A stretch of DNA of 64,000 nt from contig OX597833.1 of the NCBI GenBank assembly GCA_951406725.2, positions 37,200,001-37,264,000 on the forward strand, written 5' to 3'. The notes under the pieces are model-generated. The model was not told the DNA's origin. It made no database searches and saw only the letters and a list, made by a program, of their open reading frames with translations. Every line of letters starts with the position of its first letter. The stretch's first letter is position 1. The DNA comes from Octopus vulgaris (Eukaryota). The position numbers were made by a program, and so were the translations under genes. This document shows, one piece after another, positions 15,292 through 62,652 of this stretch.

Positions 15292-15355
15292 AAACTACAA
15301 AATATTTTATTGGTTTATGGCTTACTATGAAATGATTACTATTCATAGCCTACAG
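15292..15355 (+). other. candidate 64-nt exon of the miRNA host transcript
   Basis: A long polypyrimidine tract ends in TTTAG at 15291, and the donor is CAG|GTAAGT at 15356. It lies about 200 nt upstream of miR-100 and encodes no recognisable protein. Confidence 0.45.
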
Positions 15356-15550
15356 GTAAGTATACCTACTTGCTAATATACACCTTGTATTATGTATTTG
15401 AAAATCTCAAAAGCAGCCTTTTAATCTGTATGCAATTAAAATACAATCACCAGAAAGATGAGATGAATGAATACTGGATTCTTGTTTTAACACATTATGT
15501 TTGCTATTTCCCAAGGCTCTACCTCCTTAACTTTTTCCTTTTGTGCGTGG

Positions 15551-15631
15551 CCTGGTTACACAAACCCGTAGCTCTGGACTTGTGTTGAGGTTGGGTCACA
15601 AGCTCACGCTTATGGGTCAGTGTCGCTATGG
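15551..15631 (+). ncRNA. mir-100: pre-miR-100 (miR-10/99/100 family) hairpin; 5p arm 15563-15584, 3p arm about 15599-15620
   Basis: The 5p arm AACCCGTAGCTCTGGACTTGTG matches canonical AACCCGTAGATCCGAACTTGTG at 19/22 with an intact seed. The 3p arm CAAGCTCACGCTTATGGGTCAG resembles miR-99/100 star arms. The arms pair, there is a basal stem, and let-7 lies 1.3 kb downstream on the same strand. Confidence 0.93.
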
Positions 15632-16934
15632 TAAGTGAAATTAGTAGTCTTGTATTATATTTTATGCGCTGTCAATGACCACACAGCTGCTACTGTCTAA
15701 TCGGCAGTAAATGTACTACTGGATGAGCACTAGAAGGAAAAGAGAAAAAAATAGAGGAAAAGAAACAAGAAAGACATTTCCTGTCCCCAACCACTTACAG
15801 TATTGCCTTTACATCATACTTAAGGACTTGAGATACACGTAACATTTAGATGGATGACTTTGAAAATGATGATAGAAACTGAGGGAGGGATCTAAAGTGC
15901 AACATGAAACAACATGATTGAATAATGTATGAGTTATTTAATTTCATCTTAATTCATTTTCACAAATCTAAATTAGATGTTTATTTTCTTTCATGTAATT
16001 TTTTATTTATTTTCCCATTTGTATCTTGAAAATCATGTTCATTGTTCAAATTTCTAGCCTGTATGTCTTATTTTATTCAATTCCCACTTATTCAATCACA
16101 ACTTTTAGTAGTTTTTTTATTTCTTTTAATAGCAGCTTTACCAAAACATTATTGCTTTAAATATTTAGTTCCTTATTATTTAAATCTACCAATACTCTAG
16201 ATATATTTTATTCATTCTCAGTTATTTATTTTTTAACTATATTATTGATAATTACATTTAAGATATCAAATAAGTGTTTTGTTGTTGTTGCTGTCATTAT
16301 CATCATCATTTATCATCATCATCATTTATCATCATCATCATCATCATAATCATCATCATTAAAAGAACCAATATTGGGAATATAAGGTGTAAGTAATATT
16401 TTAAATAATTTAGAACTTTGGATTAAAAAAAAAAAACTATTAATTGATTTTTGTCATTATTATATGGATTAAAAAATTCATTGAAATATTTCAAAGTTTC
16501 AATACTCAGAATACACAATGTTAAAGAAATTCATTTTAAATAAATAACATTAAATAATAACCATTATTTATTGATCAATAAACTTTATAAGTGAAATTAT
16601 TATCGTGTATTTGTTGTATTTTCTTTGTTAAATATATTTCTATTGTATCTTTCTAATCTCCCTATAAGTAATTGGCAAAAATTAGAGATTCTGTTAAAAT
16701 ACAAGTTTTGAGAATTGTTTCCAAAAATATATTTTGGTAAAATGTGTTGGTTCATGTCAATTATAATTGGCATCATTGTATGATTATACCATTAATTGTC
16801 TATGTGCAAATAGATAGCTCATATTTTTCTTCATCTCCCCTTTCTCTCCTAAATTTTATATAAAGTCAAAAAAATCTCTTTCCCTATTCTTGCATATATG
16901 TGAAATACTAAGCTGACAACGAGGAGAAAAGTTT

Positions 16935-17024
16935 ATGACCCCAGACTGAGGTAGTAGGTTGTATAGTTAAGAAATACACCATTTCAAGGAGAACTGTACA
17001 ACCTTCTAGCTTTCCCTGGGGCAT
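16935..17024 (+). ncRNA. let-7: pre-let-7 hairpin; 5p 16947-16968, 3p 16994-17015
   Basis: Exact TGAGGTAGTAGGTTGTATAGTT. The 3p arm is CTGTACAACCTTCTAGCTTTCC and the basal stem is CCCCAG/CTGGGG. GGAG lies in the loop (16988-16991), and CNNC (CAAC, 17032-17035) lies 17 nt after the 3p end. Confidence 0.99.
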
Positions 17025-18829
17025 GAATGAGCAACACTTAAACACATCTATTCTGGCGTTTCAGCAACGCTGAATGCATCATTGTTTATCCGTCTACCAG
17101 TTACAATAATTGCAGGCAAATCTCATGCAGTCCTGTCCTGAATTTAAAATATATAAATAAAATGAGTAGAGGCTGCTTTTGGTTGTGTCAGATTTGTTAG
17201 CTGGCATTTAATGAAAAATTTTTTTATATTTGTCATTTTTTTAATATATTTGCAAAGATGATCATGAATATTATGAAATTGTTTTCAATGTTTGCTTATT
17301 TATTTTTTCACATTATTTTTATTTATATTATGACACTTAATATCTTTCTGTACATTATAATAGCTATAATTGAAACATTGACTATTTTTCACTGTTTGCT
17401 AAGTTACTGCTTTATTAGCTTCTTATTTTATTAAATTCAGCTACATTAAAGTTTTAAATTTCTAACTATTACTTCAAAATAGTTTTCGTTTAACAAGAAT
17501 AAATGTGCTTGGATTATAATTTTAATTTTTAAGCAATAATCTAATTTAAATTATTTTTTAATTACAGAATTAAAAATCCCTTTTTATGGAAATTTTACCA
17601 ACCTCTCCTCCCTAATTTTTCCATGTTATTGAAAAGAATTGTATAAATTAAAATTTTTATTTGTAAAAATTGCAAAATTTTTTTAATATAAAGAAAACTT
17701 TATTCTGTTATCAGTACTATTAATATTTTTTATTCGAATTTGTTGATAGAAAAAGCATAATTTAAGTTATTGTAAATTTTTCATTTTAGAACATAATTCC
17801 TTTGCAAAATTAAGGCAAAAATCCTGGATATTCCATACTAAAATATGTTAAACAAATAAATTACTTTTATCAAAGTAATCTTCAAGTTCATTTTATATTA
17901 TTTTGGTTCTGCTAAATAATAGATTTGGTAAATGATAAGATTTATATTTTAAAAAAAAAAGCCTATTTATTTGATACCTAGTTTATTTAATAATTGGCTA
18001 ATTTTCATAGCTGTTTTACTGAAACTAATTTTAGTTGATTTATTTATTACTGTTTAATTTGTCCAGTTAAGAATTTAAGGAGTAAAAGGTTTATTTTTCA
18101 TTTTACGTCATAAGTCTCTCATTGATTTTCAATTCAAAGCAACTATTAGTCTTTTCCAGAGAAAAAAAAAGATTATATATATATAAACATATATATAGTT
18201 CTTTCCAGCAAACCAGGATGTTTCCAGCATTGTCTTTTTTTACCTCTTTTGAAGCAAGTGCTACTATTATTCACCAGCTGTTAACCTGGACTGATATGAT
18301 TTATTGTACTGTTGGTGTCTGCAATTCAATTAAAAGTAAGTACAGTTTCTTCATATCCATATTTTTTTCTCCTCTCTGATTTAATGTTGTTTTCTATGCT
18401 TAAGGGGGTTTCACACATGTACTTTAGCAGACTTCATTAAATAATTACTCAAAATCAGTATAATCCTCCATTTGATGTCTTTAGTTCTTTTGCCTTTGTG
18501 TGAAGATGCTTCATTTACAGTTTATGGCTCCTATATTCTCATAGATTCTTTTATAACTATTGCCACATGTTTTCTGAAAAAAATAGACCATTTAGTTTGG
18601 GAATTAGATATTGAATTACTATCCTTTCAATATTAAAAATTTCTTTGGAACTTTGTTTATTTCATAATGAACATTGAAAGAATGTGGTAGAACTTTGTAT
18701 ATTGCAACATATTGTATGATTTGCATATCCTTTAACTTTCCTGCAATTGATAAATTATATATTCATGTATGTTAGAATGATGGTGTGTGTGTGTGTGTGC
18801 CTGCATGCATGCATGCATGCATGCATGCA

Positions 18830-34024: not shown

Positions 34025-35008
34025 ATCATCATCATCATCATCATCGTTTAACGTCCGCTTTCCATGCTAGCATGGGTTGGACGGTTCAACTGGGGTCTGG
34101 GGAGCCCGAAGGCTGCACCAGGCCAGTCAGATCTGGCAGTGTTTCTACAGCTGGATGCCCTTCCTAACGCCAACCACTCCGAGAGTGTAGTGGGTAATTT
34201 TATGTGCCACCGACACAGGTGCCAGACAAGGCTGGCGAACGGCCACGCTCGGATGGTGTTTTTATGTGCCACCGACACAGGTGGCAGACGAGGCTGGCAG
34301 ACGGCCACGCTCGGATGGTGTTTTTATGTGCCACCGACACAGGTGCCAGACGGCCACGCTCGGATGGTGTTTTTATGTGCCACCGACACAGGTGCCAGAC
34401 GAGGCTGGCAGACGGCCACGCTCGAATGGTGTTTTTATGTGCCACCGACACAGGTGCCAGACGGGGCTGGCAGACGGCCACGCTCGAATGGTGTTTTTAT
34501 GTGCCACCGACACAGGTGCCAGACGGGGCTGGCAGACGGCCACGCTCGGATGGTGTTTTTATGTGCCACCGACACAGGTGCCAGACGAGGCTGGCAGACG
34601 GCCACGCTCGGACGGTGTTTGTTACGTGCCCACAGCACGGAGGCCAGTCGATGCGGTACTGGCTACGGTCCCGTTCGGATGGTTTTCTTATGTGCCACCG
34701 GCACTGGTACCACAAGGATACAAATTCCATTGATGTTCATCTATTTTGATTTGGTTTGACTTGATTCGATTTGACTTTGATTTGATTTGCCTCAACAGGT
34801 CTTCTCAAGTGTCACAAGCAGGAAGGTATGCACAGGCGGACTGACTACGTCCCAGGTAGGGGCCACGGGTTATGGCTTCACTAGTCTTGCCGGGTCTTCT
34901 CACGCACAGCATACTTCCATAGGTCTCGGTCTCTGGTCATTTCCATGGTGAGACTTAATGTTCGAAGGTCGTGCTTCACCACCTCGTCCCAGGTTTTCCT
35001 GGGTCTAC
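34025..35008 (-). mobile_element. young RTE 3' end with an expanded 62-bp tandem array (34200-34710)
   Basis: (CAT)n tail at 34025. ORF end RPRKTWDEVVKHDLRTL on the minus strand at about 34950-35008. Units start at 34202, 34264, 34326, 34375, 34437, 34499 and 34561, plus two diverged units. Confidence 0.88.
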
Positions 35009-57507: not shown

Positions 57508-57789
57508 CATTGTATTTAGAGACATTCTGTTTCAGCAATATCAAGGAATATGTTGTCATGAGATTTTTCGTAGTAAAGTATATTATTTGAAATAAGAATT
57601 GAAGGTATTAATTTTGATAATTTGGAATAAGAATTGTAGGTATTAATTTTGTTAATTCTAATATTTAGTCCTATATGTACTTATTGTGGATAATGTCATT
57701 CAATGAAGATTGAGTTGCTTAAGGGTGATTCTGTCTCTTAAACCTATCTATCTATATATATGTATATAGTACAGTGAGTAATTCATTTT

Positions 57790-57863
57790 AGTACCCCTAT
57801 ATGTAAATATATATATATATATATATATATGTGTGTATATATATATGTAAATATATATATATC

Positions 57864-57894
<31 letters not shown>

Positions 57895-57895
57895 T

Positions 57896-57927
<32 letters not shown>

Positions 57928-58394
57928 CATGTATATATATATATATATATATACATATACATGTATATATATATATACATGTATATATATATATATACAT
58001 ATTTATATTCATATATATATATATATATACATACATATTTATATTCATATATATATATATATATATACATACATATTTATATTCATATACATATATATAT
58101 ATATACATTCATATTTATATTCATATACATACATATATATATATATATATACATACATATTTATATTCATATACATATATATATATATATACATACATAT
58201 TTATATTCATATACATACATATATATATATATATATACATATTTATATTCATATATATACATACATATATATATATATATACATATTTATATTCATATAT
58301 ATATGTGTGTATATATATATATGTGTGTGTATGTATATATATATACACACACAAACACACATATATATATATATATACACACATATATATACAC

Positions 58395-58424
<30 letters not shown>
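57790..58424. repeat. compound (TA/CA)n microsatellite with a higher-order unit
   Basis: ACATATTTATATTCAT recurs between variable (AT)n tracts. Confidence 0.95.
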
Positions 58425-58425
<1 letters not shown>

Positions 58426-58725
58426 GAGGTGCAATGGCCCAGTGGTTAGGGCAGCAGACTCGCGGTTGTAGAATCGTGGTTTCGATTCCCAGACCGGGCG
58501 TTGTGAGTGTTTATTGAGCAAAAACACCTAATGCTCCACGAGGCTCTCGCAGGGGGTGGTGGTGATCCCTGCTGTACTCTTTCGCTACAACTTTCTCTAA
58601 CTCTTTCTTCTGTTGGCCTGCTCGCTTAGCCAGCGGGGTGGCGTCATTTCAAGGCTAAAACAATGCGAAGCGCATTGTGACCAGCAATGTGTAGTAACAT
58701 CTGATAGTATGGTCAGCCATGGTGA
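58425..58725 (+). mobile_element. tRNA-derived SINE (distinct family)
   Basis: A box TGGCCCAGTGG, B-box-like GGTTTCGATTCC and body TTGAGCAAAAACACCTAA. CpG-rich and inserted in a microsatellite. Confidence 0.8.
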
Positions 58726-58838
58726 TATATATGTATATACATACATGCATACATTTTTATTTTATTTTATCTAGTTTCAGCTCACGAGCTGTGGCCATGC
58801 TGGGGCACCGCCATTTGGTGTTGCTACATGATTTTACT

Positions 58839-61723
58839 TCACGAATGCTTTTTAGCAATTGCCATTTGGTGCATGAGAGAGTTCAATGCAGCTGCCCTCA
58901 TCTGCACCTCCTGCCGTGAAGTTGGTTCATCTGGGACACCTGACAGGAAGAGATCCAGTTTTATTTTAAAGACATCTGCATCCACCCCATGCAGGTCTCT
59001 CGGGAGGATATTGAAGAGCAGTGGGCCTCTGAAGTCCAGGCTATCACAGTATCTTGTCCTTCATCTTGATGGCAAATTTGGAGTCCTTGGCACTATGCAG
59101 TGGCGCCCAGTTCTAGCATTTGTGTTACTCTCGATGCCAAAGTTTGGGACAAGTCCTTCTAGGATCTTCCAGATGTATATTATGGCATATCTTTCTTGCC
59201 TATGCTCTAAGGAATAGAATCTTAATCTCTTGAGTCTTTCCCAGTAGCTTATATGCTGCACAGAGGCTATCTTCTTCGTGTAGCTTCATTGGATCACCTC
59301 AAGTTGTGTGATTAACTTGACACTGGATGGTGACCATAGCTGAGAGCAATAGTCAAAGTGGCTTAGGACAAGTGTCCTCCAGAGGACCATCATGATTTCC
59401 TGGTCTCTTGTTCTAAAGGCTCTAAGAATCCATCCAGTCAGCCGCCTACATTTCATTGCCAATTTAGCAACAAGCACATGAAAGGTTGCATCGTCACTCA
59501 TGTAAATACCCAGATCTCGCACTGATTGTGCCTCTGGGATTGCAATCCCTCCAGGTCCAGTGTATTTATTGGGTATTGCATTTAGTTTTGCATCCTGATA
59601 GCATAAAGCTTGAGACTTTTCAGCATTGAACTGCATGCTATTCTTTTCAGCCCACTTGTATATTTTGTCCAGCTCACATTGCAGATGCTTAGTGTCTTCG
59701 GGGTTCTGTATTGCCTGTGAAACTTTTGTACCATCTGCATAACTTGTGATCGTGGCTCTCTGCATGGCTGAGGGCATGTCTGAGAGGGCCATTATGAACA
59801 GTAGTGGTCCTAAAACAGTGCCTTGCGGAACACTGCTCACTATTTGCGTGTTAATGGAAGTGACCCCATTGGCTACTACCACCTAACTTCTATCCTTCAG
59901 AAAGTCATGAAGCCATTCTCCCAATTTTCCAACTATGCCAAGATCACGCAGTTTGTGACATATCATTCCATGATCGACTTTATCAAAGGCCTTTGCAAAG
60001 TCAAGATATATAACTTCCACATTTGTGTGGTTGAGCAGTCGTTTCAGCACCCAGTCCTAGTGTTGTAGGATCTGAGTTAAGCAGCTTCTTCCTGGTCAGA
60101 AACCATGCTGGGTGTCAGGCAGCAAGTCATTTTCTTCAAGGAAGGTGATTAGTTTCTTTCTGACTATTCGTTCCATGACCTTTCTGATGTGTGAGGTCAG
60201 AGAGATAGGTTTGTAGTTCTTGGCCTCCGCTCTGCTACCACCTTTATGAATAGGGCATATTTTACCTTCCTTCAGTTTTCTTGGAAGTTTTCCAGTTGCA
60301 AGGAAGCTCTGAAAGAGGAACTGCAGTGGTCTTGCTAGGACTCTCTTACATACTTTAAGAAGGATTGCTGGGAATCCATTGGGGCCAGTAGCTGAGTTTG
60401 TTTTCATTTTATCTATAGCCTTTATTACATCGTCTTCCTTTATATTGATGTAATCAATCATCGCTGCCTCTGATTTTATATCTGCAGTGGTAAAGAAGTC
60501 AGTAGGGGTGGAGTGAAAATACTCTTGAATTGCTCATTTAGTATTTCACTTATCCTCATTGGATTTCCTGTGAGTGTGCCATCCTTTTCAAGGAGTGGCC
60601 CTATCCTACAGTGCACCATAGCTGTTTCTTTGGCATACCTGTAGAAAGCTCTGGGGTTAGATTTTATGTTGTCTATAGCCCAGGCTTCTTTGTCTGCTCT
60701 TTCTTTTTCATGGGAGAGTTGCAGACATTTTTCAGTTTCCAACAGTTTTATTTTCAGGCAAGACCTTTCACTGCTTTCAAATTGTTTGTTTAGGCGATTT
60801 GAAATTTTTGTATGCCATCTCATTAAAATTTTCCTCTCTCTGGGACACATTTGTAGCATATGGCTTGCATTACAGACATGAATTGTTGAAGTTTCATGTC
60901 GATGTCTGGTGAAGAGAGACATTCAGGCCAGTTTTGTTTGAGGATCTCTTTCTCAATTTGTTTCCAGTTTGCCTTATGGAAGTTCAAGCTGGAAAGATTC
61001 TGAGCGTTTCTTGTAGACTGCATGTCCATGCTTTCCTTTGGCCCGTACATGGTCAGCTCTACCATGTTGTGATCCGAGAGTAGTGTCTGTCACTTTCACA
61101 TTATGGATGAGATCCATATTATTTGTGGAGCAGAGATCCAGTATGTTACCTGCTCTGGTTGGTTGGAGTATTATTTACTCCATGTACAAAGTGTTGATGA
61201 GGTTCAGGAGGGACCTCGCCTGTCCTCATTCGCATCGTGTCATTCCTGGGAGAGATAGGCCCTCGGGCCATCTGACATTGGGTAGATTGAAGTCTCCCAT
61301 AAGAAGTACACTTATGTGTTGTTCTAATGTGACTAGAACTTCTATTTTTATAAGGCAGTCTTCAAACTTGCCTACATGGCTTGGGGTATCTGGAGGGCGA
61401 TATGCAGCACATATAACTACACCAAGTTGCCTTATATGTACAATTAGTGTGTCACACACCGAATTTGAGTATGACAAAAGGACCTGGGGTGTGATGTCCT
61501 CGCGAATGTACATAGCAACTCCTCCATGACTTCTTTCTTTTCTGTCGGTGCGTAGTACAACATACTGTGGTATGTGTAATTCCGCATCTGCTATGTCCGG
61601 TTTCAGGTGCGTTTCCGTAAGTGCTATGCATAAGCCTTGATTGCATGCAACAAAGTCTCTCAAGAAAGGGATTTTTGTCTTGTTACTGAGTGTTAGCAGT
61701 CCTCTGATGTTCAGTAGGAACAT
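58839..61723 (-). pseudogene. LINE ORF2 (APE endonuclease plus reverse transcriptase), disrupted
   Basis: LNIRGL, LTETHL, GGVAMYI, YRPP, GDFNLP, LDL and SDHN; then YKPISLTS, QHGF, LDFAKAFDK, PQGTVLGPLLF, YADGT (YADD mutated) and YWERLKRLRFYSLE. Several stops and frameshifts. Confidence 0.93.
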
Positions 61724-62652
61724 CGAGGTGATGTGTATGCAGTTGCCGGTGGTGTCCACCTTGAGTCTATTTGCTGTGGCGGTCTTGTGTATTGTGGATA
61801 GTCCCATCTGCGAGTTTGAGTTTGATGAAGCCAGGTTAGCTGCTGTACAATCTTTTGTGCCATGCACAAAAAAGATTGTTGTTCAGCAGCTGCCCTTTCA
61901 ATAACATGTTGGCGGTTTGTAGCACGCACCACATCTGCATACCTCCGTTTTGGGGCAGGTGGTGCGTGGTCCATTCCTTTTTCTTTTGGTTGTTGGTTTC
62001 TGCCCTGTTTCATGTCTATGTGGCAGGGTCTTCGGTGTGCAAAACGGCAGTCTGCACCTTCCTCTCCATGCCAGCAGACACCTTTCAGGTAGAATTTACA
62101 CATTCGTGTGCGCTGTCTCTTTCTATCCGTTCAAGTACATGGATAGTCAGGTTTGCTTCTATCCTTGGCTGTTTCATGTTTTGGTTTTGTTTGAGTTTTA
62201 GCTGTTTCATCCTTTGTTTTTCTTTTAGTTTTTCCTCCTTTTACTTCTTTTTTGGCTCTTTCATCTTCGTGGTTTTGGCTTTTGGTGCTGGTAGGGACAC
62301 TTGCACTTGGGTTTACTTCCCGGGCAGGTTTCTCACTTGAATCTTCTTTGTTGTTGTTGTCCTGGGTGTCCACCAAATGGGGGTGACATCTTTCATCAGC
62401 ACCCGTGCCTCCATCCTTGCCATCTTTACTTTGTTTGTTGTCAAAGATGACATCAAGCGTGCCGATGTGGGTTCTTATGAGTGCATAGGAGCATATAAAC
62501 TCCTGCTTCCTTCACTCTATCTGTACTGACGTCCTTGTGTATCCACTGTTCTTCAGCGCAGCTGTAATTATGTTGTTCGGATTATCTCCGTTGGCGCATT
62601 GGCAGGCTCTCAGGAACAACGCTGATTCGTTACTCCTCCAGGTTCAGGACAT
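61711..62652 (-). pseudogene. LINE ORF1 (~313 codons) with CCCH-type zinc finger and three in-frame TGA stops
   Basis: One frame runs from ATG 62652 through listed ORFs 62131-62376 and 61711-62103. It contains CKFYLKGVCWHGEEGADCRFAH after a Lys-rich tract. Confidence 0.8.

Follow-up and report, generated by a model that had tools for sequence, protein, structure and literature searches.

The way in which an intronic microRNA gene works is well established: the pri-miRNA is processed by Drosha/DGCR8 and Dicer, the 5p arm is loaded, and messengers are repressed through the seed. The genes of miR-100, of let-7 and of miR-125 present, in this succession, the order of the ancestral cluster (PMC3384580). 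In human, MIR100HG and MIR99AHG (LINC00478) are non-coding hosts with the microRNAs in their introns, and a short gap between miR-100 and let-7 is followed by a long one, of 46-50 kb, between let-7 and miR-125 (PMC3384580). The Drosophila let-7-Complex contains the same three genes in the same order within a compact cluster, and the output of pri-miR-100 is dependent there upon two factors, the let-7 hairpin and ADAR editing (PMC9247461, PMC4005697). As reported, losing the let-7 hairpin cuts miR-100 by half in fly cells (PMC9247461), and one edit in the basal stem raises miR-100 output in Drosophila (PMC4005697). Other miR-100 orthologues have diverged while keeping the seed, namely Helix Mir-10-S5 (U11>A), sea urchin mir-2003, tunicate mir-1473 and the miR-51 family of C. 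elegans. For the latter, hairpin swaps indicate that a family with the miR-100 seed acts by seed and dose, and that its 3' region can be swapped without effect on rescue (PMC12407057).

The octopus locus described here shares with miR-100/Mir-10-P2 the seed, the 5p mature arm and the first place in the miR-100/let-7/miR-125 cluster. It differs at positions 10, 13 and 15 of the mature arm and at four positions of the star arm, and it scores under the Rfam mir-10 cut-off. With respect to the Helix, sea urchin, tunicate and C. elegans variants, both the letters and the lineage are different, and the octopus gene is a single copy with three changes and an apparently co-adapted star. The stretch of DNA that we analysed (the window) has 64,000 nucleotides, and the features considered, given in window coordinates with the exception of the last one, are the following:

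15292..15355, + strand, presumed host exon (3' end set by a splice junction, 5' end predicted from a pyrimidine tract and AG)
15356..18198, + strand, putative host intron, GT...AG, 2,843 nt, which holds miR-100 and let-7 (one junction contig of run X8)
15550..15632, + strand, whole pri-miRNA hairpin with an 11-pair basal stem under the predicted Drosha cut (minimum-energy fold of 15549-15633)
15563..15620, + strand, predicted pre-miR-100 (MirGeneDB Mir-10-P2), 58 nt with a 12-nt loop (fold and Rfam mir-10 match; ends deduced from homology and a 2-nt 3' overhang)
15563..15584, + strand, mature 5p arm, 22 nt, seed intact; derived letters at 15572 (position 10), 15575 (position 13) and 15577 (position 15)
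15599..15620, + strand, predicted star (3p) arm; derived letters at 15606, 15608, 15609 and 15610 with respect to the Rfam consensus and the Helix star
15708..15739, + strand, 32-nt conserved block after the hairpin (1 difference in 32 letters in runs X19 and X20)
16941..17019, + strand, let-7 precursor, second member of the cluster (Rfam RF00027, 61 bits against a cut-off of 53.5)
18199..18337, + strand, presumed next host exon (5' end set by the junction, 3' end predicted from the donor consensus)
Genome position C20:37335991-37336047, + strand, miR-125 orthologue (squid mature row and seed), 119 kb beyond let-7

Our main reading, to which we assign a probability of roughly 80%, is that this hairpin is the miR-100 gene of the genome, located in its miR-100/let-7/miR-125 cluster, with three fixed changes outside the seed that are matched by changes in the star, and that its product is likely an ordinary seed-based repressor. 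Nucleotides 2-8 (15564-15570) are the MIR-10-P2 (mir-99/100) seed as it appears in Table 1 of PMC9820140, with 15563 taken as nucleotide 1 by homology. Compared with the canonical Mir-10-P2 rows of human, Lottia, Crassostrea and an Aca-labelled one (Aplysia) in File S3 of PMC9820140, the mature arm presents three differences only, at positions 10 (A>C), 13 (C>U) and 15 (A>G). The first-pass annotation had reported a divergence at precisely these positions with an intact seed, which the four canonical rows and the MIR-10-P2 seed confirm. It had also considered the variant as specific to the lineage; the three changes do not represent the common form in molluscs, the Lottia, Crassostrea and Aca-labelled rows being all canonical.

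The best Rfam family for the hairpin is mir-10 (RF00104), which matches 15556-15626 over the whole model with 43.7 bits (E of 9.3e-08 for the 30 kb searched and of 2.1e-06 for the genome). The gathering cut-off of RF00104 is 47.5 bits; the hairpin lies below it, and for this reason the gathering-level Rfam search of the window missed miR-100. The fold energy of the precursor is unexceptional on its own (z = -1.20, with 27 of 200 shuffles equally good). The predicted fold has arms of about 22 nt, a short loop and a basal stem, as miR-100 orthologues do.

The neighbors of the hairpin point in the same direction. On the same strand, at +1.4 kb from miR-100, there is let-7, whose precursor (16947-17015) was found by eye to be identical in 69 of 69 letters, including the loop, to the row that PMC8125070 gives for Euprymna scolopes (Data Set S1). 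The squid miR-125-type mature sequence matches the genome exactly once, at C20:37335992 (+). Compared by eye with the Euprymna row, the miR-125 precursor differs in 4 of 57 letters, none of which is in the mature arm, and this arm is derived past the seed with respect to the human, oyster and Aca-labelled rows, in Euprymna as in octopus. The mollusc miR-125 rows in File S3 of PMC9820140 also vary past the seed. Rfam gave no miR-125 match in the 140 kb downstream at the gathering level, or at the exact place even with E values up to 1, and a canonical-type miR-125 motif had no match within the 64-kb window. The three genes are therefore found in the order miR-100, let-7, miR-125 on a single strand, which is the synteny expected for a miR-100 orthologue. 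Considering the seed, the best match to Rfam mir-10 and the cluster order, the hairpin 15563-15620 is, at the level of sequence, a miR-100 orthologue. As in human, the short miR-100/let-7 gap is followed by a long let-7/miR-125 gap, which measures 119 kb in octopus and 76 kb in Euprymna. Unlike human, octopus has a single cluster, and unlike the fly cluster this one is not compact. Two squid Mir-10-type rows, considered at one point as a sign of family-wide divergence, were dropped as such evidence because they are presumably other lophotrochozoan paralogues; a degenerate motif of these rows found nothing in the octopus genome.

Regarding the host RNA, one contig of run X8 matches the window up to 15355 and continues with the letters of 18199-18228, which occur once in the window. 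This junction, observed in one contig of one run, suggests that miR-100 and let-7 lie together in one intron of a host RNA that is spliced and seems to be non-coding, an arrangement comparable to that of the two human host genes. The two presumed exons, when joined, contain stops in all three frames, and a coding host RNA was rejected on this basis. About 60 more letters of the same contig probably come from a later exon. In addition, a consensus 5' splice-site motif at 15630-15636 (+), with a donor-like site at 15631, shares letters with the 3' foot of the basal stem; splicing at this predicted site, if it took place, would compete with Drosha cropping.

As for the number of copies, a degenerate pattern with the three variable letters left open and one mismatch allowed matched two places in the whole genome, the locus itself and one unrelated place, against four matches for the control. 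The unrelated one-mismatch match (L003), evaluated as a second miR-100, showed no star-like arm by eye and falls within the control count, so it was attributed to chance. The DNA search of the genome with miR-100 gave one place. Neither the degenerate pattern nor the DNA search revealed in the genome a canonical miR-100 paralogue, whose existence the first-pass annotation had raised as a question. It should be noted that the genome-wide Rfam family search is insensitive, since it scored 60 of 317,589 candidates.

One could see in the three changes an assembly error, a private allele or a trace of RNA editing that entered the assembly; to this explanation we give practically no credit. The hairpin was covered by contigs in all eight of the sequencing runs compared, from a list of 24, and no change in either arm was listed; the bases are thus the same in the runs, including those of independent studies, as in the assembly. 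By total counts, there are zero differences in the hairpin in X4, X5, X8, X13 and X14. Two of these runs, X4 and X5, were flagged as a possible source of the DNA of the window, which speaks for this explanation, but X8, X13 and X14 come from three other studies. Run X18 presented 9 differences in 601 letters, and none of the 6 that were listed is in the hairpin; X19 and X20 likewise had none listed in the arms. Furthermore, A>C and C>U are among the changes, which are matched on the opposite arm.

The star arm differs at 15606, 15608, 15609 and 15610, the baseline being the Rfam mir-10 consensus and the Helix star and not a reconstructed cephalopod ancestor. In the minimum-energy fold U13 is opposite A15606, a place occupied by G in the Rfam mir-10 consensus and in the Helix star, with a pair probability of 0.46, and G15 is opposite U15604 with a probability of 0.37, both pairs being moderately populated. 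These are the two pairs that had been described at first, a U13 pairing with an A of the 3p arm in the place of the usual C-G, and a G15 that keeps pairing as G-U. That description of the star arm was correct for A15606, but it missed the other three changes (15608, 15609 and 15610) and the pair C10-G15608, which, like G9-C15609, forms in a slipped register that leaves a U bulged (probabilities of 0.80 and 0.79, respectively).

When the ancestral mature arm was combined with the native star by reversion in our script, the upper-stem probability dropped to 0.01 from the native value of 0.75. Single reversions gave 0.23 for position 10, 0.15 for its new partner and 0.58 for position 13. The ancestral G opposite U13, in turn, raised the upper-stem probability to 0.95, and the native state occupies rank 63 among 128 letter combinations for in-register pairing. 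The models suggest that the mature and star arms are co-adapted, with the best support at position 10. They also suggest that the compensation between the arms is incomplete, because of the rank of the native state and of the improvement brought by the ancestral G, and that its net outcome is a looser stem. The compensatory change first proposed at position 13 is thus formally right as a two-sided change, but it brings little gain in the energy model, in which the ancestral G opposite U13 gives a fold that is no worse. The hairpin 15549-15633 folds at -31.7 kcal/mol, 6.9 weaker than the -38.6 kcal/mol calculated with all seven consensus letters; comparison folds with similar flanks gave -41.4 kcal/mol for let-7 and -36.4 kcal/mol for miR-125. 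We also considered that the changes might remove or mimic ADAR editing sites, an idea that was ruled out by the persistence of an A-C mismatch at position 16 and by one star change that runs G>A.

The runs X19 and X20, which are poly(A) RNA runs of one study, come from a more distant organism. Just two blocks align at 80% in these runs, 15535-15640 with 4 differences in 106 letters and 15708-15739 with 1 in 32, and the flanks remain below that value. The one listed difference of the hairpin block is in the loop, at 15593, and the other three, which were unlisted, are presumably near the ends of the pieces. Judging from these alignments, X19 and X20 very likely carry the variant letters at positions 10, 13 and 15, because these positions are at a distance of 38-43 letters from the end and elsewhere differences at 38 letters from an end were listed, and because a canonical arm on the present star would also misfold. 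The organism could be any coleoid, given that the octopus and squid precursors of the cluster differ by 0-4 letters. The block 15708-15739 begins 88 nt past the precursor, and its spacing is kept in X19/X20 (67 vs 66 letters) across an intervening sequence that cannot be aligned.

This conservation largely refutes the view that miR-100 has little weight in the lineage and that its hairpin is slowly decaying under relaxed selection, since the hairpin block is retained where the flanks stop aligning. The intact seed and the thousands of reads recorded for octopus Mir-10-P2 (PMC9699675) also speak against it. A decaying hairpin would agree with a stem that is weaker than both its consensus-paired form and the hairpins of let-7 and miR-125, with the loss of miR-100 in the fly, which gives no overt defect, and with the Euprymna data, where a seed-matching miR-100 row is missing despite 1,183 let-7 reads (PMC8125070). 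On balance we regard such a decay as very improbable. The invariance among runs, together with the hairpin kept in the distant organism of X19/X20, supports the initial proposal of a real variant and not of an error or of decay.

According to our main reading, a long non-coding host RNA would be transcribed from the + strand, Drosha/DGCR8 would crop the hairpin out of the intron, Dicer would cut the loop and the 5p arm would load Argonaute, and the mature miR-100 is predicted to repress mRNAs via its unchanged seed. Both arms would have changed stepwise in an ancestral cephalopod, with G-U pairs and slipped registers as tolerated intermediates. At position 13 the path may have been from C13-G to U13-G and then to U13-A, and at position 10 from A10-U to a C10 paired with the neighboring G. 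The new state would since have been held by purifying selection on the hairpin. A point against this reading is that a 3' region free to drift is nevertheless conserved almost perfectly in a distant relative, for which a putative constraint of the hairpin has to be invoked. With its looser stem the hairpin would yield a lower or a tuned dose of mature miR-100, perhaps with the aid of the adjacent let-7 hairpin as in Drosophila, whose complex offers a model for dose tuning in octopus, and there would be no new target set. By analogy with the C. elegans and fly data, an effect of the changes on dose seems likelier than a retargeting.

The first-pass annotation had suggested that target preference could have shifted via 3' supplementary pairing. 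The changes at positions 13 and 15 would then have been selected for an altered 3'-supplementary pairing, or for pairing with a decay-trigger RNA, leading to new preferred targets. Two of the three changes are within nucleotides 13-16, and the variant creates a GG at 14-15, when 3' pairing affinity is reported to track G content (PMC8940178). Moreover, the variant is frozen in the distant relative of X19/X20, and the miR-125 of the cluster is likewise derived past the seed, identically in the octopus genome and in squid. Against these points, position 10 is outside the supplementary region, 3'-supplementary sites represent about 5% of the conserved sites in mammals (PMC8940178), and the 3' swaps in the miR-51 family left rescue unchanged (PMC12407057). 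We therefore consider a retargeting unlikely.

Frizzled and HS3ST homologues are predicted conserved target classes of the miR-100 seed in worms and vertebrates (PMC12407057). We scanned 12 octopus loci, 5 of the Frizzled family and 7 of 52 sulfotransferase matches (three confirmed HS3ST homologues, one tyrosine sulfotransferase and three unchecked), covering about 8.5 kb each and about 103 kb in total downstream of the stops, with no UTR annotation. On the sense strand there were one 7mer-m8, located 8.0 kb past a stop, and five 6mers, one of them with A1; for comparison, three 6mers appeared antisense, and about 2.7 are expected from a 264 kb background. No 8mer seed site was present in this UTR-blind scan of about 103 kb in 12 loci. 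Within the same small scan, none of the six seed-type sites pairs across all of nucleotides 13-16 of the variant, which also counts against retargeting; the variant gave lower duplex energies, but these follow from its additional G and U and were disregarded. The scan is uninformative, in the sense that neither a conserved targeting nor a shift gains support from it. The suggested shift in target preference consequently found no evidence, with a null target scan and with mammalian and C. elegans data against it.

Among the sulfotransferases, five frames (L030-L034, on C10, C23 and C3) look intronless. Three of them (L030, L031 and L032) have homology to heparan sulfate 3-O-sulfotransferases and are nearest to the HS3ST1/5 group, and two of the L030-L034 sets are near pairs on C10 and C23, which suggests local duplication.

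[quoted passage not shown] Selection would have favored a 3' pairing with either new neural targets or a decay-trigger RNA. If true, the oldest animal microRNA would have been retuned throughout the lineage. The locus would acquire a greater importance if conserved new partners of its rewritten 3' region existed in the nervous system of cephalopods.

The gene is very likely already known. Table S4 of PMC9699675 includes Ovu-Mir-10-P2_5p with 2,544 reads in the vertical lobe, and gives A as the reference at its position 1 with 0.1% A-to-G; four miRNAs are annotated without reads in the supplement of that paper, and Mir-10-P2 is not one of them. Ovu-Mir-10-P2 very likely corresponds to the locus 15563-15620, as there is one such locus in the genome, so the earlier supposition that the variant may be catalogued for octopus is probably right. 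In the supplements of PMC8125070 for Euprymna there is no mature row with the miR-100 seed, and no label 'mir-100' or 'mir-99'. This fits a diverged squid miR-100, and also a low expression. The mapping in that study allowed one mismatch to miRBase (PMC8125070), and a mapping limited in this way may be behind the absence from the table. Text searches of the literature for the variant sequence gave no match, and no paper discussing the miR-100 variant was found in the literature searched, which stops short of most subscription journals and of the MirGeneDB entries.

Overall, this is an ordinary gene with a modestly interesting lineage variant. From a practical point of view, caution is advisable, since octopus miR-100 scores below the Rfam cut-off and would escape read mapping at 1-2 mismatches to the canonical form. 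The variant also constitutes a natural experiment on why miR-100 is conserved past the seed in most animals, in which the canonical and cephalopod forms can be compared for processing and targeting.

With respect to the rest of the window, it contains 64 stop-to-stop frames of at least 90 amino acids. At 57778-62511 and 34048-34759 both strands contain clusters of frames without stops, 140-240 codons long, that overlap one another and are probably remnants of repeats or mobile elements.
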